Positions 1 through 57,814 of a DNA stretch of 64,000 nucleotides are shown here, in pieces; the first letter of the stretch is position 1, and every line of letters begins with the position of its first letter. The notes beneath the pieces were generated by a model. It searched no databases. It saw only the letters and a list, made by a program, of their open reading frames with translations, and was not told where the DNA came from. A program made the position numbers and the translations under genes. Location: the NCBI GenBank assembly GCA_044221725.1, contig JBGAON010000003.1, positions 224,001 to 288,000 on the forward strand, read 5' to 3'. Source of the stretch: Elusimicrobiota bacterium. GTDB lineage: Bacteria > Elusimicrobiota > Elusimicrobia > F11.

Positions 1-3000
1 GCGCCCAAATCGGCGGGAGCGACCGAATCGACCGTTGTTACGGGACTTCAACCGAATCAAACCTACTTTTTCGGAATAAAGGCCGTGGACGAGAACGGTC
101 ATGCCTCAGCGCTTAGCAACACACCCAGCGCCATGGCGGGTTTGTTTGAACTCGCGCAAGAATTGCCGGGGCTTCGCTACGGCGCTGCGGCGATGGGACG
201 CGTGTTCGATAACAACAATCAGTTTGTCGCGCTGGGATCGAGCGGGGCCGGCGTGGGCCAAGCGCTCGTTTATGGAATGACGAACGGCCAATTTGTTTTG
301 AAGCAAGATCTCAACAAGCAGCTTCTCTCCGGCACAGCAGCCTGGGGCGATTACAACGGTGACGGGAAATTGGATCTCGCGATCGGTGGAACCGAAAAGT
401 TTTTCTCATCCACACAAACGCGTCTGTATTTCTTCCGCAACAGCGGAACGCAACTCGTTGAAGACACGGCGCTCGCGCTTAGCTTTCAGCCGACGAGTCT
501 CGCGTGGCGCGACTACGATAACGACGGTGATCTTGATTTGCTCGTGAGCGGTCAGACGTCCGTGAGCACGAAATTCACGCGCGTGTACGAAAATCGCAAC
601 GGCACGTTTGTTCAAGTGTGGGAAAAACAAATCGCAGGAGCCGCGGCGTGGATCGATGAAGACAAAGACGGTTGGCCGGACATTTTGATTTCCGGAAACG
701 GATTCCAGGCGAACTCCAGCAAGACCTCCGTTTACAAAAACGTTCTTACCTCTCAGCCAACCGTGTATTTTTCGGAATCGCTTTCGACCGAAACCATTAG
801 CGCGACGCTCCAAGGCGCGGTGGCCGTTGGGGATGCGAATCGCGACGGAATGTCCGACATCGCGATGACGGGCACCGATCAGGCGGTGCCGTTGAAGATT
901 TTCCTAAACACATCGAACGGCTTTAGCGTGAACGCGCCGCTCGACCTCGGCATCAGTCTAAGTTCGGCCACCATGGCGTGGGCCGATTTGAATCACGATG
1001 GCTGGTCCGATCTTGTGGTGTCCGGTTTCGATGCAAACGTGAATCGCGCGCGTTTGCTTGTGTACCTGAACAACAACGGCGCGTTTGGCGTGCCGTTCGA
1101 GCCGCTCGGTGAGAATGCGTTTGCAGGCGGTCTCGCGCTCGGAAACGTGGACGGCGACGCCGACATCGATGTGGTGGCGTCTGGTGAAGCAGCCGGTGGC
1201 GCTGCGCGCCTCACGTATTTAAAAAATGTGTTGCTCGATCGCGGAGGGAGCACCAACGCGGCGCCCGGAACGATAACGACCTCCGCGCCGAACGTTAACG
1301 GCACGAATTTGATTCTTAACTGGAACATTCCGACCGATGATCACACGCTGAGCTCCGCGATAACGTACGGCGTGCGCGTGGCGACCATGCCGCTCGCAAC
1401 GGCAAATTCTTTCGTGAAGAGCTTCGTTGCCGCATCGCCGTTCGTCGGAAACGCCGATATCAATTCAGCGACCGTGCGCGTGAGGGATGGCCAGACGTAT
1501 TATTGGAGCGTGCGCGCGATCGACGGTTCGTTTGTCGAGGGACCGGAAGCGGTTGGTCAGTCAATCACAGTGAATGGCATTCCTCCGGGAAATATTTCGG
1601 ATCTCACGGCGACCACTGGCCTCCAAGCGAAGCTCAGTTGGACCGCGCCCGGCGCCGACGGAAATGCGGGCACAGCAACCTCGTACGATTTGCGTTATTG
1701 GCAAGACGGCGGCAGCTATGCGACCGGTACGCCCTATTCAATTCCGGCACCGAAGCCCGCCGGAACCGCGGAATCCGTCGGGATCAACGGACTTAAACCA
1801 AACGGTGTTTATTATTTCGCGCTGCGGGCGATTGACGATGGGGGGCTCGCATCGAGCGTCAGCAATATTTCGTCGGCCACCGCTTCGAGCTTTGGAATCG
1901 CCCAATCATTCTTCGGAAATGGCGTTGGTCTCGAGTCCGCCGGTTTGGCCGCGGGCGATGTGAACAACGACGGCAATCTCGACTTCGTGATGGTCGGTGC
2001 ATCGGGAACCGTGTCCCTCACGCGCGTGTACGAGTCGGATGGGAACGGTGGTTTCACGATCATCGACAAAGATAATCTTTCGAATAATTTTGTGGGGCTT
2101 CAAAACGCCGCGGTCGCTGTTGGTGACATGGACAATTCGTTTGGTTGGCTCGACTTCGCCATCGCCGGGCGCGGAACAAACGGCGAGTCGCTAAAAATTT
2201 ATCGGCAGGTAAGCGCGAATCAGTTCGCGAAAACGGATTTGGATCAATACGGTGTTGTTGATGGATCGTTGGCGTTCGGCGACGTTGACGGGGACGGCAA
2301 ACCGGATCTCGCGATCATGGGGCAGAACGCATCGGGCACGGTTTATCGTTTGCTGGTGCTTCGCAACAGCGGCACCGGTTTGGTCCACGATCCGAACTGG
2401 GACCTAAGCGCCAGTTCCGGTGTGGCCCAAGGACAAATCGCGCTGGCCGACATGGACAACGACGGAAAATTGGATCTTGTTGTGCTCGGTCGTCGCAACA
2501 CAGCGCCGTTCACTTCAAATCTGAGAATTTTCCCGAACACCGGAAATACGGCACAGCCATTTGCCGGCGGCATCAATGTCGAAGATATTAGTTTCTCGTA
2601 CGGAAGCATGGCCACTGGAGACGTCGACAACGATGGCGACCTGGACGTGATCGTCAATATTTCGGCGCAACCGCGGCTTTACAGAAACAAATTCTCTCAA
2701 ACGGGCGTGCTCGGTTTCGATATCAACAAACTCGGGTTGCCGTCCTTGCGTAACGGTCAAATCGCGTTCGCCGACTGGAACAACGACGGATTCCTGGACA
2801 TTGCGATGTCGGGCGTGTCGGGCAGCACGCGGAAGTTGATGGTGGTGCCACAATCCGTGGTGGGCGGACAAGCGTTTGGGTTCGACTTGGCTCAAGCCCA
2901 AGAAATTCTGGGGCCCAATCAAGGACTGGAAAATTCGTCTTTGATCTTTGGTGATTTCGACAACGATGGTGACGCCGATTTGCTCGTGACCGGAAAGGAC

Positions 3001-18003: not shown

Positions 18004-18007
18004 CGCT

Positions 18008-18334
18008 ATGAAAAAAATTACACTCGCATTTGCTGCTCTTGCCTTAAATTCGCTGGTTTTTGCGGAGCCCCATCCGTATCCGGTTCCTTTCACTCCGAGT
18101 CGAAACGCGGCCCACACCGCCATCACGTTCACCGATCTCGCGGGGGATGGTCGTATCCGGATTTACACCATCGACGGAAAATTGGTGAATGAGATCGGTA
18201 TCGCCCAGGGGCAACTCACCGTGGATTGGCCCGCCACAAATTCCAAAGGGGAAAAGGTGGCCACCGGCGTCTACATCTACAACATCGAGACGGGCGGCAG
18301 CTCCACGCAAGGGAAACTCGTCGTTATTCGCTAG
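18008..18334 (+). CDS. Small exported protein made only of a signal peptide plus a T9SS-type C-terminal sorting domain (108 aa)
   Basis: ATG 4 nt after the giant gene stop. MKKITLAFAALALNSLVFA is a typical signal peptide. The mature part PYPVPF...ITFTDLAGDGRIRIYTIDGKLV...WPATNSKGEKVATGVYIY...GKLVVIR aligns by eye with the CTD of the giant protein. Confidence 0.88.
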   Translation: MKKITLAFAALALNSLVFAEPHPYPVPFTPSRNAAHTAITFTDLAGDGRIRIYTIDGKLVNEIGIAQGQLTVDWPATNSKGEKVATGVYIYNIETGGSSTQGKLVVIR

Positions 18335-18719: not shown

Positions 18720-18943
18720 TTAGCCAGATCCTCAAATGTTTTGTGATGGCGCTTCATGATTTTTGCCGCGGCCTTTTTGAATTTCTCTTCCCGCTGGGCA
18801 TCCTTAATGGGTGAAACGATGAGATTTTTCCCGTCGGTGCTCAGTTCCAGGGGCGTGTCCATTGATATCTTCAATATATCGAGAATTGGTTTATCAATGA
18901 TAAGCGCTGCGCTGTTGCCATGTGCCGTTAAATGCTTGACCAT
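18716..18943 (-). CDS. AbrB/MazE/SpoVT family antitoxin (75 aa)
   Basis: MVKHLTAHGNSAALIIDKPILDILKISMDTPLELSTDGKNLIVSP is an AbrB fold pattern. A GGAGG RBS precedes the ATG at 18943, and the gene lies directly upstream of doc. Confidence 0.9.
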   Translation of the reverse strand: MVKHLTAHGNSAALIIDKPILDILKISMDTPLELSTDGKNLIVSPIKDAQREEKFKKAAAKIMKRHHKTFEDLAK

Positions 18944-18974
18944 AAAACCTCCCAAATGAAGTCCTTCGGATGGA

Positions 18975-19012: not shown

Positions 19013-19222
19013 CCAGGGAAGGGCGGCTGCTTCGTAATATCGGCGGGAACCTGTAGATGGTCTCAAAAGGACTGGCGCTGCCGGCGAATCTCCAGACTTT
19101 CTTGCGGTTAGACGAGCTGCCGAGATTCAATTAAGGTATTTTGAAGCGGCCGAGATATCGTTCGAATGATCCTCAGTGCTGCATAATAAGCTGTCTTTTC
19201 AGGCTATTTTTGGTGGCCTTTT

Positions 19223-19285
19223 TTAAGCCCTTCTTAACCTCGTCTTAAAGCGCCCTTAATCCAGCCTTGTTACAGTTTGGTTACA
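19223..19285 (+). promoter_or_regulatory. Putative PhoB/OmpR-type activated promoter of the PorV-TolC-RND operon
   Basis: TTAA at 19223, 19234, 19245 and 19256 (11-bp period). TTAAT (19256-60) is followed by 10 bp and TACAGT (19271-76). GTTACA occurs at 19269 and 19280. Confidence 0.55.
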
Positions 19286-19286
19286 T

Positions 19287-21266: not shown

Positions 21267-21267
21267 T

Positions 21268-32095: not shown

Positions 32096-32101
32096 CCTCC
32101 T

Positions 32102-32491
32102 TTATTTATTCTGGCGCTGCATCCTTTGTTGCTGATCCTGCAGGCGTTGGTTCAGTTCGTTGATGCGGTTGATTTCCTGGAGCGTTTGCAATTGGCGCTG
32201 GATGGCTGCGTCGTTCGCGGTGGTGGATTGCGGTGGAGTGTACGGCTGTCCCGGCAGACGCTGGCCTTTTCTCCGCGCTTCCTCGATGTCTTTTTGCGTG
32301 TAGGTTTTTGTTGCGCGTCCGTCGGTGGTCGTGCGCTCCGCGAGATTTGGTGGTGGCATTTCTCTGAAATTCATGGCCGACGCGCGGTCGCGTTCAAATT
32401 TTCGGAACAGAAAATATCCACCGGCGGCGACCGAAACCGCTGCAACCGTTACTCCGGTCCATAACGCCATCCGTTTCCATCCAAAACTCAT
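32102..32491 (-). CDS. Small membrane-anchored hypothetical protein with Gln-rich C-terminus (129 aa)
   Basis: GGAGG RBS before the ATG at 32491. N-terminal TM LWTGVTVAAVSVAAGGYFLF; C-terminus QRQLQTLQEINRINELNQRLQDQQQRMQRQ. Confidence 0.75.
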   Translation of the reverse strand: MSFGWKRMALWTGVTVAAVSVAAGGYFLFRKFERDRASAMNFREMPPPNLAERTTTDGRATKTYTQKDIEEARRKGQRLPGQPYTPPQSTTANDAAIQRQLQTLQEINRINELNQRLQDQQQRMQRQNK

Positions 32492-32550: not shown

Positions 32551-32699
32551 TTCACAGGTTTTTAACCTGATTTTAATGAGATTTTAATGCATTTCGCCCA
32601 TAATCAAAGAGTGATTTTTCGCGCCAAAAACACTGTTACAACACTGTTACAACTAATTTACAACTCGTTAATGCGATCTTAATCGCCTCTCGATAAACT
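32551..32699 (+). promoter_or_regulatory. Two tandem putative PhoB/OmpR-type promoters upstream of the 8369-aa giant gene
   Basis: First set: TTAA at 32562, 32573 and 32584, then TTAAT-N10-CATAAT (32599). Second set: ACACTGTTACA twice (32630-32651), ACTAATTTACA, TTAAT at 32668 and 32679, then N10-TAAACT (32694), 5 nt before the ATG. Confidence 0.6.
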
Positions 32700-32704
32700 A
32701 ACTT

Positions 32705-47700: not shown

Positions 47701-50700
47701 ATATTTCGAGGCGATCTCCGCGAGGGAAGGATTATTGAAGCAGCAAAATTATCGCTCAGATGCGGGCGATCGTAAAGCTTTACGCACGATTGCCCTCGTC
47801 GGAGCCAACGGCGATGCTCGCTACCGCGTGGCCGCGGAGGGGATCAATCTCATGCGTGGGCGTGGACCGGACGGCGGATCTTGGAATTCCATCGATCGCG
47901 ATGCGGCGGTTCTCATCTACTCGGCCGATCAGCGATACCATGTGAAGGCGTTCTACGAACTTCTTGAGATCAACGGAGCCTCCGGCGTTGTGGCGGCACT
48001 AAAAAAGAAAAACGTTAGTGGCATTCAAGATGCGATCGATAAAGCGAAAAGTATTATTGATAGCAAAGAAGCAAATGCGAGTGCGTGGTTGCGCGCCGAA
48101 CTTGATACGCATAGGGTGATTGATGGTAATCGTCCGGACCTTGCAGAGTTTATTGCAAAAACGGCCGCGGAGCGAAAAAGCATTGTTTGGTCGACGATAG
48201 GCCGAGCGCTCAGCTTCAACGCAATTGGCAAAAACCGCATGGACGAGATCATCCTCGGAACGGACACATCGTTTACGGAGGCCGCTGAGTTCCATCAGAT
48301 AGTTAATCGGGTGGATCGTAACTTCACTGGTGAAAACCGCAGTTACCGTTTGCAGATCGTGGACCCGACTAATGTCGACGCGCGGTTTTCAGAAGTGGTT
48401 AGCCTGAACGACGACGTGAGGCGGTTTGGTCGCCAAGGTTTATTCACCGACGATTACTTCGGCAAAATTTGGGAATCACATAAAAATGGCGACACTCTGA
48501 CGCTCGAACAGAAGGTGAAGCTCAATTCGCAGCTCGCGTCGTTAGAGAACCGGTCTCGAAACGGACAGCATCATTTGCACGAACAGGTTGGCGCAAAGTT
48601 AACAAACGAAATTGTAACGCTAATTGGTGCGGAACTTATCCGTCGCGGGAATTCTCTCGGGGCCGAGGCTCTCGAAAAAATCAAAGGTGAAATGTTGGAT
48701 CATGACGAGCGCGGCAACGATGATGGTGGCACTTACAATCAAAGTCCGAACGAAATTGCCTACAGGATTGTGAAACGAGAGGTTGAGAAGGCCGAAATTT
48801 TTTATTCAAAAATCATTAATTCCGAACACGTGGATCTTGATCTTGTTCAATTCGCTCGATCGCGCTTAACGGAAATTCAGACCGAATTCTTGGGTTTTTC
48901 AAAACGGGTTATTAACGACGTCGATAAGAAAACCGGGTACCACGTTGGCGAAAACTATCGGAATGCGAGTTTTGCAACGGCGAACACGGTTCGCAAAGTT
49001 TTTGACGCTGCGATTGCAACCTCGGACTTTTTGTTACCGAACGTGGAGCTAAGCCATGCGCCGACAGCATTTACGGCGGCAGTGACACATATGGCTTTTG
49101 GCAACGTGCGCGCGCCGCGCGATGCGTTGCCTGCTGTTGCAAACGATAACGTTTCGAAAGTCGCGTTTGTGAACGCAATTAATCCGCACGCTCCGGAATC
49201 CGTATCCGCAGAGAAACCCACCACGATTGACGGGAAACCCGTCGCTCTTCCGCCTCTCCAAAATTTAACGCTTTGGCAACAAGCCGCGTACAGCGTGTAC
49301 TCTTATTTCTCACCGGCGCGGCAAAGTATTGACGATGAAAAGCGCCGCGCCGACGCGATGTTGCTCGCGCGAGCGGGCTTCGTTAGCCAGGCTGTCGCTG
49401 ACAACGTGGCAAGCAACGATCCGGTTGTCGCGGGTCGCGCGCTGCGCCAGATGGCCATGGAAGTGGCGGACCGATGGGAACGGTCGGGTCAGCGCATGGA
49501 AAGGTTTGATTTGCCGACTCTTATGTTGGTAGCGGAGAACGTTGTGACGCAGATGGATCAGGTTCGCGCGGCGATTGCGCCAAATATTCTTCCGAAAGTT
49601 GATGCGGACTGGGCGGGCCCGGCGCAACTTAATCGAATCGTGGCGATGGCCGCCGCAAGCCCAAACACGCCTGCTGTTGGCAGTTGGGAGTCGGACAGCG
49701 AAAAAACCGCGAAACGACGCGACTTGCCTTCGGTTCGTCAGGAAGTGATCGCCCAAGGGATTAGTGATTTAGCGGCGCTTCTTCCGGTCGATACGCGCGC
49801 CACGGTAGTGCCTATTGTGCGCAACGCGCGCGCGATGCTTACGACCATAAACCAAGCGCGCGACTACGAAGCGCAGCAGAGAAATATTGCGTTGGGTGCC
49901 GGAGGCATCGGTGCCATGATCATGCTTCAACTCTCTATGCTCTATTACTCACCGCCGCGGCAATACAATCGCGTGCTCGATCAATCGTTGGCGACCCTTG
50001 CGGGCAAAGGCGAACCTGCGAACCGTGCGGCTATTGTGGTTGGCGTGATGGCGCTCTTCCACCTGAACACTCCGGTTTTGCGGCAACGTTTGCGCGACGC
50101 CGTGGACGTGATTGCGAACACCGACCCGGGTTTGTTGGATCATGTGACCGCGCGGGAACTCGCGAACGTGGTACGGGCAAAAGATCCACAAAAGGAACTC
50201 GAGAATCTTCTCTATAAAAATATTGGTTTTGCGTTGCCGCTTCCGACGGCCGTCACGCAAACGCTGAAGGTTGCCGGTGTAGCGGGGAGCGTGGTCGCCG
50301 GTCTGGGCACAATGTTCGGATTCCTATCGCTGAATTCAGCGCTCACCATTTTCTCGATCGCGTTCGGTTTGAATTTCTTGTCCGCCGAGCGACCCACCGG
50401 AGATGGACCCAGCGTTTGGGCGCGTCTGCAATCGTTCGGCACCGGCGTAAAAAATGTCGGTGGTGAAATCGGTCGATGGGTGTGGAACAACAAAGTGAAA
50501 TCCACAATCGCTGTTTCGCTGGTGGTCGGAACGGTCGCGACCGGCGGAATGACGGGCGCGTTTGGCTCCGTTGCTGACCTCGGAAGTTATTTTACGGCCG
50601 CCAATTTGAGCAGCGCTTTGGAAACCGTGTTGCCCTTCGCGCTGCCGCTTTTGGGTGGCCTCGCCGGAAAGATGTTTAAGAAGTACGAACTCGAGATCGC

Positions 50701-53700
50701 GATCCGCGAAGGACGAATCCTACCGTTCACCAATATCCGAATTCCTGGCTTTGATCGCGTGTTTCGTCAACCGTCGCCCGCGTTGTACGCGTTGATCGCG
50801 TTGCGCACCGCGCGTGAAGCGAAGGAGAAAGATTTAAAGAGCCGTGACACTGCCGTGGCGGAAAATCCCGAATATCAAAAATTAAAAAACCAGCTCGATA
50901 ATTTTGATGCGGATCTCGAAAAGAAGTTGGACAAGATGCCCGAACAATACCGCGGCACGATGCGCCAATTTTCTCAGCAGCAGAAGAAAGAGATTGAAAA
51001 ACAAATGAACGATTTGCGCGACAAAACACCGGTGCCCGGATTAACTGTGGGACGCCTTGTCGATGCGATCGAAACGCGCCATGGGAAAAAGAGCAACGAC
51101 GACAAAAACGAAATTTTGCGCTTGGCGCTGATAACGTTGGGTGTTTCACCGGACAAAGCGCTGCGCGCCGTAGCGGCCGTCGACGTGTTGCGCGAAGCAA
51201 CGGCCGAAGATTCCGATTACGATCCGAAAGAAGTGGCGGCCGTCAAAGAAGCTTATCACGAACTCGATACCGACGTGCTGAAAGGAAAGGGTTCGTTATC
51301 GCTGGACCTGCGAATGGATTTTGCACGCTTCGGAGCACAGATGAAAGCCGACGGAAAAGAAGTGACGCCGGATGCGCTGCGCGGCGAATACAACGGCGCC
51401 GAATTCAAGCAGGCGATCCGCTACTTCGCGCAGCAAAAAAATATCACCGATGATGAGGTTGCTCTGATCGCGCAGTTCCATGACGACCGAAATATTCCTG
51501 TCAAAGATTTGGCCGCGGCCATCCGCAAAGACAATTTGAATTCGTTGCGCGCCGACAAATTGGCGAGCGAACACGAGAAAGAAAATCCCGATTTGGCGAA
51601 GGCGCTTAAGAAAGTGGGCGCGACTTATGACGCGGTTTCTGCGCACGTGCGCACGTATCTCAAAGAAGAAGCACGCATGACCGACGACGAAGCAACGCAA
51701 GTTCTTACACTTATCCACGGTTCGTTCGGCACGAATACAACCATTGATTTTGCCGCGCGGGTGGCCGAGCCGATTCTCTCGAATCCACTCGTTCAAAATC
51801 CGGAAGCGGTGGTAGCGGGGCTTTTGAGGATTTTGATTGACCACGCCTATTCTGATTACGGCGTTCAGCTCGCCGCGATTGAACATAACTTGCCGGTCGA
51901 AAGAGATGCCGACACCATGAATTTGCTGCGCCGTGTGCAACACCCGAACGCGCCGCGCAACACGACGCTCGATTTGGGTTTTGCGCGTGCGCTCACCACA
52001 ATTTATGGATTCCAGCTGCCGCTTGACGTGCAAGCGAGCGGCATGCGTCAGACCGGTTACGAGCTGCGAAACAGTAACGGGACGGTCGCGCGCGTTGCGC
52101 TCAGTGGAAACACCGGAATTCAAGTTCGCGTGAACGTGGCTCCAAACGGCGAGGCACCAATTTATGGCGAATTGAATTATCGGCTCGCGAACAATCAAAT
52201 TGTGGATGTTGATGTGCAATCACCGCTTGGTTATCAGGCGCGCGTCGGCGGATCCGTTACTACCTCGGGACACGCCAACAATATTGCGGGCCAAGCGATT
52301 CAATTTGAAAAAGTAGAAGTGGGAGAGAAGCCGCTCAAAACGTCGCTGTTCGCATCGTCCCTCGAGAGACCCGTCACCGAGACGCCCGTCGGTCTCAAGA
52401 TCGAGACACCGGCGCAGTTGGTGGCCCCAAGCGCGGTGGCGCACCTGATGGGAGACAGCCTTCCTGCGAAGCCAGCGCAAACGACGCCGCAAAAACTCGT
52501 TAACCGACCCGTGGATATGAAACTCGATGATTTGTTCGGCCTTCCGGTCGTGGGTGTGTTGCTTGAGAGTGCGTACAAAGCCGTGTTTGGCCGGGCTCCA
52601 ACCGACGCGGATAAACAACAGTTAGCGCAGTTGAATAGCGACCATAAGAGTTTGGCGGAATCGCTGTTTGGAACAAACAAGGTGCCCGATCAATACCGTT
52701 CGCTTCCGTTGCCGATCGCAATGAAAGGGGAGGCGGCCGTTCGTTCGTTCCAATCCGAAATGATTTTGGCCGCAATCAAAAACGGAACCGTGTCGCCGAC
52801 GTTCCAAGCGTTGCGATTCATTCCGAACGACATGTTGCCGCAAAATGGCGGCACGCTGATCGTGCTTGATCGAAACAATTCCAATGGGTGGGACATCCGC
52901 GTCGGAGAAAATACCATCGGCACGATTTCGAAATCCAATAATGTCGTCACGTTGACGCTGATTTCACGCCAAGAGATTCCCGCGCAGATTATCGAACCGA
53001 CGCCGCCCACGAATATGACCGAGTGGGGACACTATTTCTACGACGGGAAACCGGCGCCCAAGGTGATCGCGGCGCGAAGCGTGGAGGTGCGCAACGAAAT
53101 TATCCTGACGGTCGACGAATCTCCGACGGCTCCGTATGTTGTCACCGACATTCAAGCGAAAGCGGGTGGCGAGAATGGTCGGATCGTGCGCGAAGGGGAG
53201 AAGCCGCTCATGGAAACCAGCGGGTTCACATTCGCTGCATCGCCGGCTGGTTTTAAGACGATGGAAACGGAAATAACAATCCCCGGAGATCTGCGGGCCG
53301 TCGAAGAAGATGATTTCAAATCGGCAAAAACCGTAGTGATGGAAAATGTGACGGCCGCCATGGAAGAACGTTTCGGATACGACCGCGTCTCCAACATGGA
53401 CGGCATGGAAGCCGTTGTCGATTTGTTGTTCGCGCTTCACCCGGATTTGCCGGAATCTTTATCGGCCGATGAAATTATTGATTTGGCTTTTAGTGCGAAC
53501 CCGTCAAAAGATTTGACCGATATCATTTCCGAAAAAGACGGTTCGGTGTTCGCGCGTCTCGCGTCCGATGGCGCGGAAAATCCCGACGCGGTCAAACAAG
53601 CGTGGGAGTTGGTGTCGTCTGGAAAAGCGGAAACCGTTGGTGGCCTCGTCCAAGCGTTAATGGCGGACAATCGTATCGGTGACCGGCTGGGCGTTTTTCG

Positions 53701-56700
53701 TTTGGCCGCCGTGATGTCGGGCTTTTCCATCTCAGAGGCGATTGCGTTAGCGAACATCATGAAATCAACCGACGCTCGGTTCTTCTCCGGTTTTTCCATG
53801 AATTTCTTGGCGACCGTTGGTGTGCCGGTGCAAACGGTCCTCGAGGTGAGACAGTGGCAAGACAAGCAAAGCCAAGCCGGCGCGATTATGTACGAAAACG
53901 TGCGCGCGCAGTGGGGAACAACAAGCATTGGCACGAATCGCGCGCTTGATATTTTGAAAGGTGCACCGCTCTCGAGCGTGGAACGCACTTCGCTTGAAAC
54001 ACAGAGCCAGCTGAACGAAACTTACGCGGTCGTGAACGCGGGTCCAAACGCAAATCTAAGATCGCAAATTTTGGCGAGCGCCCAGACCCTGCTGGAGCTT
54101 GCTGGTGTGAGCGCTCCGGTTGTTGCTTCGTATCTGCGGTCCGTTGTTTCTGCGCGCAGCGCTGAAGATATTCACACGCTGAAAGTGCAGACGTCGCAGC
54201 AACTTCCTGACCGTCAAACCGCGACGTTGCTGCACAATTTGATCGATGCGTTCCACGCCCCGACCGCCAATTCAGCGACGATGGTCGTGTTTCGTGCGGT
54301 CAAGCAACTTAATGTTGACGATTCGTTTGTCCTGCTGCTCAACCAAACGAATGCCTCAAATGGTACGTGGCAGGTAACCGGCGTGGTGCCCGCGGGTCCA
54401 AACGCCGGACAAAAAATAAACGTTGCGGTTGTGACAGTTTCGCCGCAATCACCGCGCACCACCATCGCGATTCAAATCGGCGTAGCGGAAGGTAAGAACG
54501 GCCCGGTTGTCGAATTACCGACCACCCATGCGAACGGTTCGACGTTGCTCCTTATTAATAGTGGCGATTACCAGGTGGTCACCAGCGGTTTTGGTCCGCA
54601 GCCCAAAGCGCAAGCGCTGAATGGAAACCTTGGGAATGCTGCGCCGACCGCGCAGTCCGTGCAATTCACCGATGGAAAGAATACGTTGCCGGTGCGCATT
54701 GCGGTTCCGACGGCGATCACGAACGAAGCCATTCGTTCGTCGCGCGCGCAAGCGGCGATGGTGTTTGGCCGCCTCAATCAATTGGCCACGGCCAACGATG
54801 CAAGTCCGATGGATCCACTCGTGTTTCAACAAGTGGAGCGATTCTTATCACCGGCGATGCTGCCGCTTTTGCGCGGTAACGGTTCGAACGAGGGAAGCGA
54901 GCCCGATCTTTTCGTGGTGCGCGGCACGAACAATCAAATCGAAAGCATGTATGTGCTGAACGCGAACGGTTCCTATGGCGTGTTTCGACGCACGACAGTG
55001 GACGGACAACAAACCGTAACGCGCGGCGAACCCACGCACGTTCCGCCGATGAACGCCGACGCCTACGAGATGGCGCAAATGCCAAACGGTCAATGGTCGG
55101 TTGTGCCGGTGCTCACGCCCCTTTCAACGATTCCTCGCTCGGTCGCCCGCGAACGTCGCGATCACGGCGTTACAAATGCCGGTGTGGCGATGCGCGTGCT
55201 GGGTGGGATGCTGGCGGCTCCCTTCGCGATGTTCCGGGGTGTTGCCAATCAAGCAAGTCGTCACCGCATGGCGTCCGCGTTGGTGTTAATGTTGGTCGCG
55301 GTGGTGTCGGCAAACGCGCAAGAGCCAATGATGCATCAAACGGTTTCCACCGCGAAAGATTTGGTGGCGCAACCGATTCCCCACATGTCGGTCGGCGCGG
55401 TGGCGGCCGTGACCGCGATGGGGTCTGCGCTCCTCGGCTTCATGGGCGTTCGGTCGTACCTTGCGATACGCCGTGAAGCACCACCGGCGAATATACCGAT
55501 CGTCATGTCCGCGAAAGATTTCAACACAAGGGTGAACGAACAAAAACTTTCCTCACCGGACGGAATCTATTTTGCGTCTCAAGAATTGCTCGGCGTGCCG
55601 TACAACGGCGCCGAAAACGCGGTGGCCGTGAAGGTTCAGGAAGTTCGAATCGCCGGCGACGGACAAAGCCGTTACGTGCTGTCGTTGCTCCCCGCAAACA
55701 CGGATTCCGCTAGCACCGCGCCACTGCAGTTGGCAAATTTCAGTGGGTATATGCCGAACGCGGTGGTGCGAATGTTCACGAAGTTGCCAACCAATGCCGC
55801 GCAAATTTCCGCTTTCTTGAAATCGGATGATGGTCGTCTCGCTAATTACATCAGCGTGCCCGCATTGTTCGGAACAAATCCATCGTTATTGAGCGGTCTC
55901 AACCTTGGATTGGATGACGTTCAGGTCCATTTCAAAACACTAAAAGACGTATTTGAACCGTCGACGCCCGAAGCGCAACGATTGGCGTCCAGAGAATTCA
56001 AAGCGTTGGTGGCGAAACTTGTAGCGGAGGCGAGCGCGTTTGCGTCATCCGAAAGCGTTCAATTGCGGCCCACCTACGTGGACGCCATCATGAAAAAATT
56101 TGGTCCAAACGTTTCGTTCTTGCAACGCGATCCGAGTGGCCGTGCGTTCGTGTCGAGCGGTTACGATTATTCAGCGGCGCTCGCGTTGTGGCGAAAGGGC
56201 GTTGTGCACCCGGTTCTCGTGTCGAACGGCCAGCAAATCTATTTTGTGTTTTCGAGCGGCGAAAGCGCGCTCAGCAAACTTAATTACGACGGTACGAAAG
56301 GCAAGACCGAGCGCGGCAACGAAAAGCGCTATCTGAGTTCGGAACCGGACGGAAGTTTGCTCGCGGTCGCGGGCAAACCCTACTTGAACGAAGGGCAGAA
56401 GGCGATTGCGCGACGCGCCGTCGAAATCTTGTCGGACATTTTGGTGGGCGACGGCCGCGCACCGCTCGTCTTGACCGACAGGCAAGTGGCCCAGCTTTTT
56501 AACTCCATCGGCGACTTTGTGCGTGGTGGCACGCCGAAGGTCAACGTGCGGGGTTCCGATCTCGGATTGCCCGGCACCGATGTCGACAAATTGATTCAGG
56601 AGCTCGGCGAACAGATGCGTTCGCTCGCGCAATCCAACGCGCAGATTCTTGATCTCGCGCAGCGTGGACAGATGAGCGCTGTCGGTGTGTCGGCGGTGCA

Positions 56701-57814
56701 CCATTTGGGTCTCGTTGTCGGCCTGACTCGGAGCGGAATCTCGATTCAAGACTTGTCGGCGGATGTGGTTCGCGGCATGGACGCGGATTTGAGCGCGTCT
56801 TTGGTGCGCGGTGCGCAGGCGAAGAAACGTCTTTCGGTGCTCACGAAAATGGATCCGCAACAATCACAGAAACAGATGCTGCACGAATTCTTGGCGCTTA
56901 CCGGCTTTGATCAGAATTATGTTCTCAAGAACGAGCGCGGTTATTTCACGCGAGATTGGTTTGAGAAAGCTCTTTTTGCTGATGCGTCGGAGAATCGAGA
57001 GGAAGCGGTGCGCGCGATTGTGGTCGCATTCGCAAAAGATATTGCGAACCAGCAAGGTTTGTCGGCGTACAAAAACCAAATTGAAAATGTTGAAGTTAGG
57101 CTGCTGCCCAAAGCCGCGTTTGAAGAAAAATATGGCGTGGGTCCGGCCGCGTTTGAATCGAACACGATTATCATTCAATACAACGAAGGCTTAACCGGTG
57201 ACGCGATGAAACAACAAATGTTGCTCGCGGTCGCCGCGGGTCTGCACGAAGTATTTCACCCGGTGTTGGATGCGGTGGCGCCGGAATCCATGGCGCCGGT
57301 TTTGGCAGAAGCGATCATCAATAATTGGGTGCTGCAGGCGTTGCGCGGTGAAGGGGGGCATCAATTGCCGGAGCTCGCGCGGCTGTTTGAAATTTTTGTG
57401 ATTCAACGCATCGTGAAGCAAGAAGAAACGCCGGTGCTCGTGATTCCCGAAAATATTGCGCTCGCGATGGCAAAGTCGAAAATGCTCAACGATTTGGCGA
57501 CCGCGAACGCTATCGCGGTTCTGGCGGGCAATTCTGCCAATCATAATCCTTTGCTCGCGCGGTTCCGCCATGTGACCGAAGCCGAACTTTTGAAGAAGAA
57601 AGTGGGCGAGACGCGCAATTCAATCGTGTCGTGGGCGTTCGATAACTTTGGAACATCCAAAATCATCGTGCTTCAAAACGACGAAGCGAAAGCCACCTTC
57701 GCTCAAGTGTTCAACAATTTGCCACCCGAATACATTCTGCCGCTGGCGAACAATCTGTCCGACATCGCCGCTCTGCAACAGAAAATCGCCGAACTCGTTA
57801 AATCCCAAGCCTAA
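32705..57814 (+). CDS. Giant multidomain membrane-associated protein (8369 aa) with an internal SecA-like ATPase, two zincin HExxH motifs and several hydrophobic helix clusters
   Basis: Uninterrupted 25.1-kb ORF with a signal-like N-terminus (KKFTAVAVSAIYLQVNIVWA). SecA/SF2 motifs: LPAAGGKT (46529), NSFGF, MMDEVDAIL (46934), ATGT (47585), STIGR (48191), QIVNRVDR (48296). HEVFH at 43625 and 57245. Confidence 0.9.
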   Translation: MMRRIPSKNVSILKKFTAVAVSAIYLQVNIVWATPTQNPATLLTHSPTISQFFTHFSKPADNTPIVFHANPADDPNRFLRNQRNEQAFMNPADVATREARANDAQVGLGFTGRNPAGQITQRLGLPVENLTVGDLLRVVPVRTREAILDAFKKDDGAALKLDVQNGRIVITGKEGNNTVTIKADIKHEGGRQILAVNRIDKSVTQERRPENAADKQEKGKVTEQDVLGKQHTIDGQKFDVKKNEAGQLVPVDPATGKQIKPVVENKMKDVYGRIHNVKMEVDHFELRDGQLLAVGRNLNLKGGVDFRFGGADDGAGDGKGFGNVPGSHNITATIRDGGVGVFQVTDPKKESAVGVIVRVNLENGNARLDHAAVTYQPINPTSTDVKIQFQANNGAITQLATSKDAGTTAVGNQQLHMTTWNVESGAETVKMNVKGKEVGVLAYLNIQRGTILSDQKGGLVGHAVVDEKTNTATQIYFAGNARGQELAALAVTDKQNGKLEKVDVILQSESGKMNKTLNKDSDVKVEAATLAKLEKLDFNGMDRAAIKQAITAVVGTGKESSGYEVNTKVKVNGAEADLRITTGKDKDGKMVILIGTNNRDLAIKIFGSETVAKAENKVKEQFDSVKKELPADAKFTYLEANGRMQAQVVFKVPGTDRLASILVDVNLEKADEPTTVVRDGNATEYLFGAGRAPGISVEGLRTNIRESIGNLDRQIAAETTPSKRLDELKATRANFAESLKKLDSPETRIKVTQSTSIGALNFNHLSITYKDGGEEKTISAVSISQGENPGVLRFSVEAMQTLAGKSAMDSLENRVVGNALPLFEALGISKANVSVKLEGVTVGADIQFNSLATVTRGTEKIAVPVNGSIANPTIDVDSAVRLVGKDKIQGFENALRQDALGGVQLAIAQAPTPQAKAEAEKVLAVMKAALADPNTKAMQFSVGDNGQLTMTMRGKDSNQQDLLIVGTMGYKGFEIAAARGANWLLSQTTMTDPSTRAVVQQTFITVSRPTEALASVIGAVFTPASTSIEVMRVTADRGLVSRDSVRSIERIAGREIVSEKIISSDQSTGQRIEDLYTPGSHTTRYFENGVEAAQPIRGIWGAVSGITYQFNGRDLAASWTNLESRAGDGTSILFLTRNGVREGHVEKSAERNSLDFIYTNASSNGAVSFVGQRIERTSDSSLTAQSVGQLVHLKMDDGKIVLGIYGEGRGLTLERNLTDNKKIGLGDSFRFDGNQVTIIAKPGSRTGETQIDTAIEGQIGRLTTVLSPDGLKTGVVTKIENETKLTHTSNGRTSEFTLPAGTVGLTIGNEFVVTSQTRATVVSDGRTNNVLIDPGSKFSFAVTPTNNVGGQLGSMVSGSYYVENGHLNAGKISNESSVLQMQGGGRGAQANEVVDREVDAEGNTVVVRGRIYVQDNQLKFREGTLFNNVAVDERYVRSFDYRVGAGDKYAVLQKDGSFQAAFRSRFSLNNEIRADMEKFIDKAEIRAQYIKENVAKVVVFDSQGQRVGEYSVNYKDDMQRVQEAHGVSGGSGGAGVYFTDTNRVRIKNGALQFDSEKNDEKEVFHVLDGNGKFQQRNEISIIPKFEIQVGNQKATVKITELQDAGGKTIVKSIKLFDGAGKLLRDVSEVSNLRLAKAEQGKDQQTKYDARENLEREIQDWKSYAETKKVPGQENALGYLLRDRSADMFAVQRNDIGRPSFIGLLQVAVQGVVVQPLEALYSLTISRTTTVSDWMARNNLSIQGIEAKGNAADWSAFTRQIERGEKPSSDILKAVGLQKNGFALDTFISVDSFLGHMFAADKAMNMVDARGNVSIKNIGLAGGIWVATVLSGGSASAATSVAANGVRAGWLSRVVWGGASSTRAAIGAQLARYNVVGAVRGAGFWGTARGITLGGFQLMLRAEAVNAIDQVLTSYNIEGFSDNTSKLTVTAIWKVALSEIYFAAPLLAPLFGSSRAATFGVTANWLTTAKNFSESSAAGTLLVLRYTSTALVGAAIGAGSQILENQGKLTWDTGWAAVKGALTAVVVRAVFTGTTIAINKIGNKIEQKAAAGNPSLTKESFSLDKRTEKLVEHSQTGKNLAGQKAESFRESSNVHIRIAGLRSLQIGRDLVTGISGSITFQILSGKNVLERQNAIDALRQGAFMGFIFGGARMAVTNWATAFKNMSTVGGLAAFNAQRIQSGVMMGVWEVSVAPFTGFISEAFYAATDYLGLTTDKDRADRNEQKEQQQKERAALKENFGATLGEVRFQFNKFWGTFQNISGLHPFFSLGRPGVNIFSKPVEGIVGRYTNATFNQISSALTKVRITGTANNVLSNILWQARGTVQFLSTNAIVNPININTFFIYETVGLKGAMAIGLVTPMKEVNGQLVLVDKNGDAIKGDAGKPSFFQETVATVFRVAGFISAPIHASPDKSAEGAYARGQIGSLSAPETFIGKSVRAVEETVGIVDRRNPQAFTLANNLKEHLESGKGGDFEFTATDGRRYTLSGQEARDLGNQARVAVLSTPEIAKAAEKAGVLPEHIAYNPVTGEARVLTPNHSAPAGFFEVRLPNRAAETAAKETASAKTGADVAGSADTSKPATNDSTKAPLAETKPQEPTKPANRADIGKINGVKVEAVEDVDGNIRIKIAEPVTDDVARDLESRVFVVENGNAKEVAVGRLGDIVVKNEDRANNAPLKVTELTPETALDRAARSDASPDVRSVAGLRPGEVVVKMGVENFVVAVKARAEGALANSPAQDTSVKARAKEEVNAKPEDAVKNVAGWDKLAPETQAAVQRLMADPTIGAKVRGMLAEMGGRGLEMLGALYDAAGHDTFTRVIESLSPEQVKSLAKTMNELSPLAKSNFVSMVKDLARNGEAALRTFLAVVSTLGPKVSNALFEGLKPAGREAFQKIISIFSDATKATALQGFKNVLAELTPTGAQALASFFNEIGGKDGKGVTTFAKFLEIAGQKGNENIAKTFGKLLNGLTLLGGAALGAAFTQLGRAREQTFAQLMRTLSKSDLQGFAAFVNTLGEKGQGAILGKILNLLPNANGIPKQVITLGNLFAQLNKTAGQRLADMFMRADAKNELVNLVSSVTKLEPKAAAAFAEVLNNGAAATVIALGILLGSNDKDVRFGAAELLASAGKEGALGLKNVLDAFANLIERGIGHPDAKSDTALENVAKLAAAQLSKFVKESDSAQKQTFGQALRELSRNANGPKDAADIMAHFLASDVGHAALGRALTSFAEHGGMLGRVLMTVTQNAPKKIVDPISGRETDTTNSWVANLLINSIEVSQVGGARDVSPGEMAGRMLRPAFFDVRGKPRTADETTKFTEGVLGSVFNKPPEAFNDREKQMAGDMLEHLAATMSDTQKVAARALADKFGIEVDFGASPEALAAKTEGKDAEAKEDAAVSNNSVADGEEPHPDTGRAAVERSAVGRVLKAVKDFFRSDYGDEFMTHEDVMAKIAYVEQKLFGEDSEHKKVEAGTFGSQSGKDWFDSIRWTDKQVIKENKLGQEDDVIILRATTGGKTVFLMLRDGKVWISKTTLRKNASDVTFFLVSDAARTKELKKSLQGAEGLAETSNIKKVFYKPWIDSKEDKAQFLDALKNDPAILSMLHFWLERGVTPKIMGRLIVGDNARNMGYMHNGSIHRGIETTDIDVFIHEVFHLAFDTKLTPAQKEAIRKRYVDANGERSAEYMKLFDEGIYDAAKYKSGIQKADEAFAQYMEMIAAGTTFLEYKRKGDVVVRLELTKGDVEFFLSQGLITKAVADRAMKLLDAGAASKESEATKDSKPKESTFERATSALRPIITAVGVAVGVTERAAEAPHGAQVVRTEPAGEAKPVEPAAETESRPAAGRSEAEPAKPGEKPLPQDGFDFTETKSDSNPTRLTDTPVNILRKAAYVEALHGREAKLVFEALYRESAGVDAKSLKAALEKIIDNGVKEGTGSDADYWRRSDGTIVTRRGTVIKETGKSYIERRENSGDPGKTNTIVRLFDFDGNQIGEQIAIRGDAATARKQAEDLKMTKTDIEIVTKIAKQYKGKAEFRFEKDDATGVYKIVEIIFPHGAKNVARFNKTFYAAWLNLGAVDEKDKLPEATNQVKALAKDVADKLVDANGKTKNFDLLAQELDRVLEQVKTPADKKVLINEVVKALQARDDISASTKGAHVRELEKAGGKQLDKKDFYRDLVTQVDLNACSNCAVNYNGPMRDDAFARVRSDVQREYPGMSPARRERFAMGRIDASLSPAQRSELGRKEIANGFENYANGLSPDRLSDALFYRNMADAIRNGDTRPSTTARGAEESVWAQNRVDVARARVNYTLNRTSGALDWILGKLEINVDAARVLTSSGWALDRAENTYMSLQMRDKLDVDQGKLIELVSQLPSIENGDARKSAAEDVAAAKLHFEQEKRRLDRGELPNASDFLDFQNILVDQEKESRTPLDLAEKSVKEAKELSAGEKFYGPGLREAIVESKKGEDARFSLIYDRVQTVMKDLLIAPDVYRVEKDGTRTKLTELDKVNPQDVIVLQLPRSVAAKIDRLKRRENTQADWEAAVVDLLAVGKNAADKPIDNKGAVVNAAELNIHQRTALLWAVSQRTFEDQSQPMTREDIAMDQGKRMAFFFGLVRGNEVVALPAAGGKTGAFILAQADFVLRNRSKKNGEKFVLELDVFNSAEAEKYISERERYEGMAIGAALIRPVDGRDFHQNIKKAEEAYDVNKSVISDRGIKLEGVKMIVHDLNSFGFLMLHMGENLTARVSTLVRENVKSVMMDEVDAILMSMMSFINSKTELHASDDDLSRGAVTVRAILKTLELNHTKVDVARYKERSEEKDAADHPNYRYFPSGRVSDEDRKDGVWFTITAAGKVEYSDKFLEKVRSNLEEKSISNREIQNALRAFADTGDGNRSTISRVDGKLKIVPVTRHGPQKGLVDSYRMYNVARTLFENMSRRLRNEEELDEKQVPISKSSATATLIQAIAFRINAIKAAATGTKDDIDSADPSLAPFAQLLTGMGVSVVSQSSYADLKYFEAISAREGLLKQQNYRSDAGDRKALRTIALVGANGDARYRVAAEGINLMRGRGPDGGSWNSIDRDAAVLIYSADQRYHVKAFYELLEINGASGVVAALKKKNVSGIQDAIDKAKSIIDSKEANASAWLRAELDTHRVIDGNRPDLAEFIAKTAAERKSIVWSTIGRALSFNAIGKNRMDEIILGTDTSFTEAAEFHQIVNRVDRNFTGENRSYRLQIVDPTNVDARFSEVVSLNDDVRRFGRQGLFTDDYFGKIWESHKNGDTLTLEQKVKLNSQLASLENRSRNGQHHLHEQVGAKLTNEIVTLIGAELIRRGNSLGAEALEKIKGEMLDHDERGNDDGGTYNQSPNEIAYRIVKREVEKAEIFYSKIINSEHVDLDLVQFARSRLTEIQTEFLGFSKRVINDVDKKTGYHVGENYRNASFATANTVRKVFDAAIATSDFLLPNVELSHAPTAFTAAVTHMAFGNVRAPRDALPAVANDNVSKVAFVNAINPHAPESVSAEKPTTIDGKPVALPPLQNLTLWQQAAYSVYSYFSPARQSIDDEKRRADAMLLARAGFVSQAVADNVASNDPVVAGRALRQMAMEVADRWERSGQRMERFDLPTLMLVAENVVTQMDQVRAAIAPNILPKVDADWAGPAQLNRIVAMAAASPNTPAVGSWESDSEKTAKRRDLPSVRQEVIAQGISDLAALLPVDTRATVVPIVRNARAMLTTINQARDYEAQQRNIALGAGGIGAMIMLQLSMLYYSPPRQYNRVLDQSLATLAGKGEPANRAAIVVGVMALFHLNTPVLRQRLRDAVDVIANTDPGLLDHVTARELANVVRAKDPQKELENLLYKNIGFALPLPTAVTQTLKVAGVAGSVVAGLGTMFGFLSLNSALTIFSIAFGLNFLSAERPTGDGPSVWARLQSFGTGVKNVGGEIGRWVWNNKVKSTIAVSLVVGTVATGGMTGAFGSVADLGSYFTAANLSSALETVLPFALPLLGGLAGKMFKKYELEIAIREGRILPFTNIRIPGFDRVFRQPSPALYALIALRTAREAKEKDLKSRDTAVAENPEYQKLKNQLDNFDADLEKKLDKMPEQYRGTMRQFSQQQKKEIEKQMNDLRDKTPVPGLTVGRLVDAIETRHGKKSNDDKNEILRLALITLGVSPDKALRAVAAVDVLREATAEDSDYDPKEVAAVKEAYHELDTDVLKGKGSLSLDLRMDFARFGAQMKADGKEVTPDALRGEYNGAEFKQAIRYFAQQKNITDDEVALIAQFHDDRNIPVKDLAAAIRKDNLNSLRADKLASEHEKENPDLAKALKKVGATYDAVSAHVRTYLKEEARMTDDEATQVLTLIHGSFGTNTTIDFAARVAEPILSNPLVQNPEAVVAGLLRILIDHAYSDYGVQLAAIEHNLPVERDADTMNLLRRVQHPNAPRNTTLDLGFARALTTIYGFQLPLDVQASGMRQTGYELRNSNGTVARVALSGNTGIQVRVNVAPNGEAPIYGELNYRLANNQIVDVDVQSPLGYQARVGGSVTTSGHANNIAGQAIQFEKVEVGEKPLKTSLFASSLERPVTETPVGLKIETPAQLVAPSAVAHLMGDSLPAKPAQTTPQKLVNRPVDMKLDDLFGLPVVGVLLESAYKAVFGRAPTDADKQQLAQLNSDHKSLAESLFGTNKVPDQYRSLPLPIAMKGEAAVRSFQSEMILAAIKNGTVSPTFQALRFIPNDMLPQNGGTLIVLDRNNSNGWDIRVGENTIGTISKSNNVVTLTLISRQEIPAQIIEPTPPTNMTEWGHYFYDGKPAPKVIAARSVEVRNEIILTVDESPTAPYVVTDIQAKAGGENGRIVREGEKPLMETSGFTFAASPAGFKTMETEITIPGDLRAVEEDDFKSAKTVVMENVTAAMEERFGYDRVSNMDGMEAVVDLLFALHPDLPESLSADEIIDLAFSANPSKDLTDIISEKDGSVFARLASDGAENPDAVKQAWELVSSGKAETVGGLVQALMADNRIGDRLGVFRLAAVMSGFSISEAIALANIMKSTDARFFSGFSMNFLATVGVPVQTVLEVRQWQDKQSQAGAIMYENVRAQWGTTSIGTNRALDILKGAPLSSVERTSLETQSQLNETYAVVNAGPNANLRSQILASAQTLLELAGVSAPVVASYLRSVVSARSAEDIHTLKVQTSQQLPDRQTATLLHNLIDAFHAPTANSATMVVFRAVKQLNVDDSFVLLLNQTNASNGTWQVTGVVPAGPNAGQKINVAVVTVSPQSPRTTIAIQIGVAEGKNGPVVELPTTHANGSTLLLINSGDYQVVTSGFGPQPKAQALNGNLGNAAPTAQSVQFTDGKNTLPVRIAVPTAITNEAIRSSRAQAAMVFGRLNQLATANDASPMDPLVFQQVERFLSPAMLPLLRGNGSNEGSEPDLFVVRGTNNQIESMYVLNANGSYGVFRRTTVDGQQTVTRGEPTHVPPMNADAYEMAQMPNGQWSVVPVLTPLSTIPRSVARERRDHGVTNAGVAMRVLGGMLAAPFAMFRGVANQASRHRMASALVLMLVAVVSANAQEPMMHQTVSTAKDLVAQPIPHMSVGAVAAVTAMGSALLGFMGVRSYLAIRREAPPANIPIVMSAKDFNTRVNEQKLSSPDGIYFASQELLGVPYNGAENAVAVKVQEVRIAGDGQSRYVLSLLPANTDSASTAPLQLANFSGYMPNAVVRMFTKLPTNAAQISAFLKSDDGRLANYISVPALFGTNPSLLSGLNLGLDDVQVHFKTLKDVFEPSTPEAQRLASREFKALVAKLVAEASAFASSESVQLRPTYVDAIMKKFGPNVSFLQRDPSGRAFVSSGYDYSAALALWRKGVVHPVLVSNGQQIYFVFSSGESALSKLNYDGTKGKTERGNEKRYLSSEPDGSLLAVAGKPYLNEGQKAIARRAVEILSDILVGDGRAPLVLTDRQVAQLFNSIGDFVRGGTPKVNVRGSDLGLPGTDVDKLIQELGEQMRSLAQSNAQILDLAQRGQMSAVGVSAVHHLGLVVGLTRSGISIQDLSADVVRGMDADLSASLVRGAQAKKRLSVLTKMDPQQSQKQMLHEFLALTGFDQNYVLKNERGYFTRDWFEKALFADASENREEAVRAIVVAFAKDIANQQGLSAYKNQIENVEVRLLPKAAFEEKYGVGPAAFESNTIIIQYNEGLTGDAMKQQMLLAVAAGLHEVFHPVLDAVAPESMAPVLAEAIINNWVLQALRGEGGHQLPELARLFEIFVIQRIVKQEETPVLVIPENIALAMAKSKMLNDLATANAIAVLAGNSANHNPLLARFRHVTEAELLKKKVGETRNSIVSWAFDNFGTSKIIVLQNDEAKATFAQVFNNLPPEYILPLANNLSDIAALQQKIAELVKSQA

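Follow-up and report, generated by a model that had tools for sequence, protein, structure and literature searches.

The RND-type gene set described here, made up of a TolC-family channel, two permeases and an adaptor, forms a complete tripartite set of its own clade; its gene position, phyletic pattern and promoter link it to large signal-bearing proteins. Its architecture is known, the clade and the association are undescribed, and a new function is plausible. The cassette (TolC, RND1, RND2, adaptor and an FtsH-like protease) may serve the biogenesis of giant proteins that lack a type IX-like C-terminal domain (CTD), most likely by export through TolC driven by proton-motive force; judging from the sequences, we give this slightly less than an even chance. 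The window, i.e. the whole 64,000-nt stretch of DNA that was analysed (C5:224001-288000 of a 2.82-Mb genome, 94% complete), holds two machines joined and not one.

Gene organization of the locus

Two giant frames, at positions 1-18003 (5' end open) and 32705-57814 of the window, enclose a six-gene operon in which all genes have the same direction and genes 1-5 abut or overlap; these ORFs and junctions, taken from the preliminary description, held on rechecking. The operon opens with a 659-aa PorV/PorQ-family barrel with C-terminal TPR repeats (19287..21266, + strand), followed on the same strand by a TPR protein with an N-terminal hydrophobic segment (21268..22695, start most likely GTG 21268), a 665-aa TolC-family outer membrane channel with an N-terminal AMIN-like domain (22692..24689), the permease RND1 (1058 aa, 24686..27862), a lipoprotein of no known family (27859..28728, start GTG 27859) and the permease RND2 (1095 aa, 28751..32038). 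A small membrane protein encoded on the minus strand (32102..32491) is conserved after RND2 in the family. Upstream of the first giant lie genes for an FtsH-like protease, an RND adaptor, a HAMP kinase, an OmpR-type regulator, a hybrid kinase and a sigma-54 regulator, in a gene order identical in genomes G004 and G008. The stated lack of an ABC ATPase agrees with a domain search of the locus, which detected no ABC transporter in C5:196001-288000, and an Rfam search gave no match.

Composition and phylogeny of the TolC-adaptor-RND cassette

RND1 and RND2 matched the AcrB-type permease family PF00873 with 729 and 666 bits, respectively, and scored below every named NCBIfam cut-off. Trees were built from 82 sequences with FastTree and from 30 of the 82 with IQ-TREE, with four characterised references. 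The two permeases formed two clades (SH-aLRT 99.4 and 100 in IQ-TREE) and lay outside AcrB, MdtB/C and CusA in both trees, as expected if they do not nest in the characterised drug or metal efflux clades. By these sequence criteria RND1 and RND2 are two old clades of their own; their sister relation received 0.997 in FastTree and only 62 in IQ-TREE. The RND2 homologues include proteins labelled Omnitrophota by their source. At the positions of AcrB residues 407/408/940/971/978, RND1 reads D-C-N-R-T and RND2 D-D-S-R-T, the clade majority being D-N-N-R-T. The D407-D408-K940 relay is thus incomplete, and since Lys940 is missing in both RNDs and D408 in RND1, proton coupling is not assured.

The RND pair had been regarded as adaptor-less, a view that had to be abandoned. 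The lack of a membrane-fusion protein is true of the window only, as a cognate adaptor is encoded at C5:209510-210814, just upstream of the first giant (TIGR01730, 200 bits against a cut-off of 94.9). Its best matches are adaptors inside TolC-adaptor-RND1-RND2 operons, to which it shows 33-48% identity as against 22-30% to the other adaptors of the genome. The homologous operons have a standard adaptor too; it was identified in 56 of the 80 metagenome loci, and many loci without it are truncated.

The TolC assignment (PF02321, 151 bits) agrees with the structure model and with PDB relatives. The AMIN-like domain proposed for it was recovered in the ESM Atlas (0.91, with AMIN in 23 of 30 matches) and corresponds to an all-beta domain at residues 77-195 of the model (pLDDT 83), a Pfam search for AMIN on this protein being negative. 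TPR repeats were present in five of six long TolC proteins scanned, and TolC length reaches 1,679 aa. The fusion of TPR to TolC in Omnitrophota-type loci explains the TPR gene that stands before TolC here.

The FtsH-like protease lacks a periplasmic domain and is a paralogue of the normal FtsH of the genome (39% identity). The lipoprotein, with an invariant Cys and two alpha/beta domains, was matched in 101 of 301 Elusimicrobiota genomes, and its gene usually sits behind the FtsH-like gene. PrgK domain 2 gave the best fold match (Z 8.6, rmsd 3.3 over 85 residues), but it did no better than the OsmC-like and CDF C-terminal domains and lay close to background; ring building is therefore no more than a lead. 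In three metagenome loci (L171, L172, L176) the gene labelled FtsH is probably MgsA, like the gene at the same position in L170 and L182, and the FtsH linkage has been seen in Elusimicrobiota only.

Association with giant genes across Elusimicrobiota

Among 301 genomes RND2 was found in 68 and QDAH-type large secreted proteins in 82, and 217 had neither. QDAH proteins were present in 66 of the 68 RND2-positive genomes, and the remaining two carry a repeat-type giant beside the RND pair; these co-occurrence counts ignore kinship, and relatives are not independent. In family f17 (89 genomes), 50 genomes are QDAH-positive and all 42 RND2-positive ones fall among these, the RND genes being in decay in the reduced members G234 and G172. 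When all 16 QDAH-only genomes were retested, RND2-level matches were obtained in four (G163, G207, G179 and G234). No member of the RND1 or RND2 clade was found in G032, a complete genome, or in G015, which encode divergent QDAH giants of up to 12,935 aa; the other QDAH-only genomes are fragmentary, reduced or decayed. Besides, G072 has RND2 and no QDAH match, and G108, G157 and G262 have 1-4 QDAH matches and no RND2-level match.

Genes of 4,800-11,900 aa follow or flank the RND pair in G007, G002, G028 (twice), G025, G041, G035 (twice), G047 and G177. No giant stands directly after the pair in G024, G014, G031, G063, G064, G096, G163, G175, G282 and G156. Second, independent cassette copies in G002, G028, G025, G177 and G035 flank genes of the repeat-rich family (4,800-11,500 aa). 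The giant neighbours belong to at least three families, namely QDAH-domain proteins, repeat-rich proteins related to the 18,016-aa protein that is the largest of this genome, and the giant 2 type. A weak Tiki/ChaN match was seen in three of nine QDAH-domain proteins. The proposed tie between the RNDs and giants is thereby upheld by adjacency far above chance and by phylum-wide co-occurrence.

Association with giant genes in metagenome loci

The neighbourhood survey suggested in the preliminary description, with the RNDs as bait, gave the same picture. The query, built from 24 aligned RND2 relatives of which five bear the source label Omnitrophota, gave 274 metagenome matches, and 80 of these were examined; the loci are Omnitrophota-type relatives and carry no taxon label themselves. 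Their usual gene order is TolC-adaptor-RND1-RND2. The next same-strand ORF has at least 1,000 aa in 34 of the 44 loci that extend 3.3 kb or more beyond RND2 (L165 counted across a 1.3-kb gap, and L145, which ends at 914 aa, counted as negative), against a base rate of 3% in this genome, where 59 of 1992 genes are followed by such an ORF. The following giant is lacking in 10 of the 44 loci. Nearly all of the giant ORFs after RND2 are still open at the end of the locus. When RND2 was clustered at 90% identity the giant followed in 30 of 39 clusters, and at 65% identity the 44 loci fell into only 8 clusters (3 giant-only, 2 without and 3 mixed), so that the sample is not independent.

Giant 2, its SecA-like region and signals

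Giant 2 (32705..57814, + strand) is a protein of 8369 aa with a basic signal peptide ending in QVNIVWA and the C-terminus KSQA. HExxH motifs occur at aa 3641 and 8181, and peaks of hydropathy at aa 5728, 5856 and 7563 mark hydrophobic helices near aa 5730-5990 and 7560; the protein has neither a CTD nor a QDAH domain. Its designation as a SecA-bearing giant refers to a divergent ATPase region at about aa 4580-5280 (46445..48544, + strand), for which the evidence is divided. In its favour are an ESM Atlas value of 0.93 to SecA_DEAD clusters, with all ten best named matches in the SecA family or clan, and GGK[TS], DE[VA]D and ATGT motifs common to this region and that of the G007 giant (27% identity). 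The recognition score of 2269 is slightly below the 2300 mark. On the other side, Pfam, PDB phmmer, shallow hhalign and a search of shorter proteins were negative for SecA, as was the ordered-motif score (104.5, against 93.2 +/- 5.6 and a maximum of 107 in 40 shuffles). A normal secA is present elsewhere in the genome.

Both giants of the window start with signal-like peptides, as judged by eye and by our own profile. The signal peptide common to the giants is basic, with a polar residue ahead of a W/F-A end. The profile was trained on 20 peptides from metagenome giants only, and among 1732 proteins it placed giant 2 at rank 7 and the 18,016-aa giant at rank 11. Seven of 26 QDAH proteins came within the top 40, with a median near rank 290, and none of 22 CTD proteins ranked better than 238. 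A C-terminal Ala is found in 21 of 26 QDAH proteins as against 10.6% of all proteins, and giant 2 also ends in Ala; a 22-residue C-terminal QDAH profile ranked giant 2 158th of 1967, so only its last residues fit the QDAH C-terminus. We infer that giant 2 is cargo of the RND-TolC cassette.

Giant 1 and a predicted type IX-like route

The window covers the 3' two thirds of giant 1 (1..18003, + strand). Its full frame is C5:215673-242003 (8776 aa stop to stop), with a start near C5:215703, about 8.3 kb before the window, and a protein of about 8,770 aa. Giant 1 has a signal peptide, and the FN3 and FG-GAP repeats and the CTD attributed to it earlier were all recovered, the repeats by domain search and the CTD as a type A domain above the TIGR04183 cut-off; orthologues in genus relatives share 55-61% identity. 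A 108-aa CTD-only protein with a signal peptide (18008..18334, + strand; TIGR04183, 32.3 bits against a cut-off of 23) was missed in the preliminary description, and the position of its gene between giant 1 and PorV-TPR is conserved. The PorV-like barrel is likewise substantiated, with 171 bits to the PorV/PorQ family NF033709 (cut-off 90), its scores to the equivalog models NF033710 and NF033711 being below the cut-offs. The genome has five PorV matches, three over cut-off, and 24 C-terminal CTD matches among 25 rows.

The reported absence of SprA is correct for the window only, as the genome has an SprA-like gene at C4:344397-349817 encoding 1806 aa with three collinear TIGR04189 matches (best E 2.9e-16, below cut-off). 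Phylum-wide matches also speak against SprA absence, the SprA-like gene being near universal (260 of 301 genomes). It is present in 86/88, 26/26 and 22/22 genomes of families f7, f13 and f15, in which RND2, QDAH and the lipoprotein had no match, so the SprA/PorV/CTD route would be independent of the RND module. From five genomes of the f7/f13/f15 type, 11 of 19 RND matches were placed in the tree and all fell outside the RND1 and RND2 clades. Searches of this genome (94% complete) detected neither GldM nor GldL, in line with the statement that Gld genes are lacking; the 14 genomes used as controls contained no positive. Their domain matches assign giant 1, the small CTD protein and PorV-TPR to a predicted minimal type IX-like route, and giant 1 is likely a separate cargo leaving by this SprA/PorV route. 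A single dedicated envelope apparatus, as first proposed, is therefore unlikely, the PorV/CTD part having its own SprA-like translocon and occurring without the RND pair.

Shared promoter and regulators

A common promoter layout had been noted for the operon and giant 2; it was found at both places and also before giant 1. Upstream of PorV-TPR (19222..19286, + strand) it comprises TTAA repeats with 11-bp spacing and then TGTTACA-N4-GGTTACA, and the second copy (32561..32662, + strand) has three TTAA and TGTTACA repeats. In the genome the TTAA triple has 14 matches and the TGTTACA repeat 5, and the two stand together ahead of the operon and of each giant. The layout upstream of PorV-TPR was kept in all four relatives inspected, and TGTTACA repeats also precede a giant in G001, G004, G007 and G008. 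The repeats are likely putative boxes of an OmpR-type regulator, a reading for which we take the spacing to be that of OmpR boxes. In four wastewater RNA runs from one study the locus was covered by short, low-depth contigs that span intergenic stretches, and these runs consequently show neither transcription nor co-expression.

Proposed function and alternatives

If the cassette exports giants, Sec would deliver the polypeptides to the periplasm, from where RND-adaptor-TolC would take the giants or cleaved pieces out through TolC by proton-motive force. MdtBC is a heterotrimer, and by analogy RND1 and RND2 may form one as well. The TPR modules and the AMIN domain would grip the polypeptide cargo and the cell wall, and the FtsH-like protease and lipoprotein would clear stalled or cleaved intermediates as quality control. 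Both routes, RND-TolC and SprA/PorV, would then be gathered in one co-regulated locus building a giant-protein surface. We put forward only tentatively, and as rather unlikely in its full extent, a general two-step RND-powered secretion in Omnitrophota and half of Elusimicrobiota, in which a heteromeric AcrB-type pump and a TPR/AMIN-decorated TolC would extrude proteins of 1,000 to >10,000 aa with a class-specific signal peptide, QDAH cargo having in addition a C-terminal helix with a final Ala; a type IX-like route lacking a motor would run in parallel. Protein handling by RND/TolC, an attack role and a predatory lifestyle, all envisaged in the preliminary description, are putative.

Several observations count against export. 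To our knowledge, no AcrB-type RND translocates large proteins. Giant 2 has predicted membrane helices, G032 and G015 carry QDAH giants without RND1/RND2 and G072 has RND2 without QDAH, a single cassette stands against 26 scattered QDAH genes, and the profile gives most QDAH signal peptides a middling rank. Besides, the accessible text of West-Roberts et al. (10.1101/2023.11.21.568195) links the largest Omnitrophota giants to type II/Tad-like genes.

The main rival, possible though we consider it unlikely, is that the cassette exports a small molecule or peptide needed together with the giants (a lipid anchor, a glycolipid, or cleaved signal or FtsH quality-control peptides), adjacency reflecting co-regulation. 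The permeases are full-length AcrB-type proteins with a standard adaptor and TolC, two-component genes flank the RND pair, an arrangement also known from mdtABCD-baeS and cusCFBA-cusRS, the genes for the FtsH-like protease and the lipoprotein lie next to the pair in eight genomes (G063, G064, G068, G116, G163, G282, G156 and G175), and G032 and G015 make giants without the cassette. Such an export would leave unaccounted for the TolC-TPR fusions and very long TolC proteins, which suit protein contacts, and an adjacency that holds across unrelated giant families and duplicate cassettes.

The cassette may instead act as a surface or envelope sensor, in which RND-TolC, the FtsH-like protease and the nearby kinases and regulators would control the expression of giants and not their export. 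In families f1, f10 and f14 the adaptor gene stands immediately before a HAMP kinase and regulators, the adaptor of G031 carries a fused receiver domain, the relay residues are degenerate, and direct-repeat boxes stand before all three units. We hold this to be improbable, as the metagenome loci keep the downstream giant with no kinase or receiver neighbour labelled in any of the 80, a ROK regulator being present in 30.

It is very improbable that a single apparatus is at work in which RND-TolC takes the place of the GldLM motor that the type IX-like route lacks, and deals with CTD cargo together with PorV. The genes for the CTD protein, PorV-TPR, TPR, TolC, RND1 and RND2 do form one gene run in f1, f10 and f14, SprA lies about 9 kb upstream of the CTD-to-RND2 run in G047, GldM and GldL were not found, and the promoter is shared; yet no PorV or CTD label occurs in the 80 metagenome loci, and the abundance of the SprA-like gene in three RND2-less families disfavours the RNDs as a required type IX motor. 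Least probable is an inherited accident, an ordinary efflux pump beside a giant-gene hot spot in the common ancestor, for although there are few deep clusters, relatives are not independent and giants are abundant (44 open frames of at least 1,300 aa in this genome), the link spans RND2 proteins <45% identical and two phyla by source labels, involves several unrelated giant families and duplicated cassettes, and is absent from the other four RND loci of this genome, none of which has a large neighbour.

Relation to known systems and significance

Export of giants would extend AcrB-type RND pumps, known for small molecules, to a role in protein secretion. How proteins of 5,000 to >100,000 aa cross two membranes in Omnitrophota and Elusimicrobiota is an open question in the literature, for which the cassette is a specific conserved candidate. 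With such a candidate, for which a cargo class is predicted and markers exist, and which occurs in genomes of Endomicrobiaceae size as well, the question becomes testable. The SprA/PorV/CTD set without detectable GldLM across Elusimicrobiota, in turn, widens the range of type IX-like secretion.

In type I secretion, giant RTX/MARTX-type proteins pass through TolC as very large unfolded chains, and SecDF is an RND-superfamily member that moves polypeptide with proton force. A Tiki/ChaN-like domain in the cargo, though a weak match, recalls RTX/MARTX-type cargo; unlike in type I secretion, the cassette has no ABC transporter and the cargo has an N-terminal signal peptide, and the RNDs are AcrB-type, not SecDF-type. 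Like the cassette, the MdtABC-TolC and MuxABC twin-RND pumps have an adaptor gene ahead of their two RND genes, together with a TolC-family channel and two-component neighbours. They differ in that the RNDs described here are separate clades, far below the NF007798/NF007905 cut-offs and without Lys940, with AMIN/TPR additions on TolC, FtsH-like and lipoprotein partners and downstream giants. With the type IX secretion system this genome has in common a barrel of the PorV/PorQ family and type A CTDs, both scoring above the curated cut-offs, and it has a candidate SprA-like gene; in contrast, GldM/GldL were not found, the SprA match is below cut-off, PorV is fused to TPR, and the phylum lies outside Bacteroidota/FCB, to which published abstracts confine the system.

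Elusimicrobiota are rich in huge proteins according to the accessible text of PMC11573180. SecA-bearing giants have already been published, as seen in the accessible parts of West-Roberts et al. (10.1101/2023.11.21.568195); like giant 2, these Omnitrophota giants have a signal peptide and membrane helices, with a normal secA elsewhere, and they carry a divergent SecA-like domain to which the putative one of giant 2 may correspond. The present giant has 8,369 aa and comes from Elusimicrobiota, whereas that paper connects its giants with type II/Tad genes and nowhere in its main text uses the words TolC, efflux, RND or PorV. Secondary SecA_DEAD proteins (Kamneva et al., PMC4452313) likewise combine a SecA-like domain with genes of adaptor or outer-membrane type and are related to type I secretion, but they are stand-alone proteins, and the accessible text does not mention RND, AcrB or Elusimicrobia. 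TolC, efflux, AcrB, RND and multidrug do not occur in the available portion of 10.64898/2026.06.07.730766, nor TolC, efflux and RND in that of PMC10066038. Among the best-ranked literature, excluding subscription papers and preprint supplements, neither a link of an RND pair with giants nor type IX genes in Elusimicrobiota were found; flanking-gene tables of two Omnitrophota preprints may list RND genes.

An uncharacterised Leptospira plasmid operon, with the order TolC-Ig-like protein-lipoprotein-TPR-adaptor-RND-RND, shares the twin RND, TolC, TPR and lipoprotein genes, but its lipoprotein family differs and no giant lies in the stretch seen. Its Ig-like gene encodes 1,216 aa, and its RNDs branch with RND1 (85.7) and with RND2 (99.3, on a long branch).

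Secretion-related loci elsewhere in the genome

The TTAA triple (TTAA repeats at 11-bp spacing), which belongs to the promoter layout before giant 1, the operon and giant 2, was also found elsewhere in the source genome, at C2:23152, C3:384582, C3:799297 and C5:499193 (contig:position). These copies lie upstream of the genes for a PorV-like protein and a QDAH giant and of the gene preceding a CTD protein; the triple possibly marks a broader secretion regulon. The QDAH (Tiki/ChaN-like) family of large secreted proteins is represented in this genome by 26 loci, encoding proteins of 775-8,881 aa with a W-x-E-R-R motif downstream of the signal peptide and C-termini that tend to R-x-[AL]-[VA]-L-x-[SA]-A, a terminal pattern that might serve as a sorting signal or degron. 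A QDAH protein of the relative G002 (L057:2797-13575) has a glutamate dehydrogenase-like segment starting at aa 730, a case of cytoplasmic-type enzyme domains within giants that carry a signal peptide.

A SprA-like gene (1806 aa, C4:344397-349817), head to head with LptF/LptG-like genes identified by eye, has matches in 260 of 301 Elusimicrobiota genomes. GldL and GldM were not found in the source genome (94% complete), and the SprA-like gene may belong to a motor-less type IX-like system.

Variation around the operon components

A Fic/Doc gene, preceded by a small antitoxin-like gene (together window 18333-18943, minus strand), forms with it an insertion separating the CTD gene from PorV-TPR. 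At this site the pair is absent from the relatives G003, G004 and G008, and three QDAH genes occupy it in G002. Within the TPR gene N-terminus lies an in-frame palindromic repeat of WIPAFAGMT type (window 21316-21381), which is also matched by RNA contigs of other origin than this locus.

The lipoprotein gene is directly 3' of an FtsH paralogue lacking the periplasmic domain (C5:207924-209594 in the source genome; also L039-L050) in most relatives, and 24 genomes retain the lipoprotein though they have neither an RND2 nor a QDAH match. In the relative G031 a receiver domain forms the N-terminus of an RND adaptor (L053:12889-14601), whose gene is followed downstream by those for a kinase, a TPR protein, a PPIase and RND1. 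On a Leptospira plasmid (L119) the operon order is TolC-Ig-like-lipoprotein-TPR-adaptor-RND-RND; its RNDs group in the tree with RND1 and RND2, and several relay residues are lost in both RNDa and RNDb.

The 3' end of the window (58369-64000) is a housekeeping tail encoding a histidine phosphatase, SseB, two M16 peptidase subunits, a TPR protein, a SpoU methylase and MmgE/PrpD.
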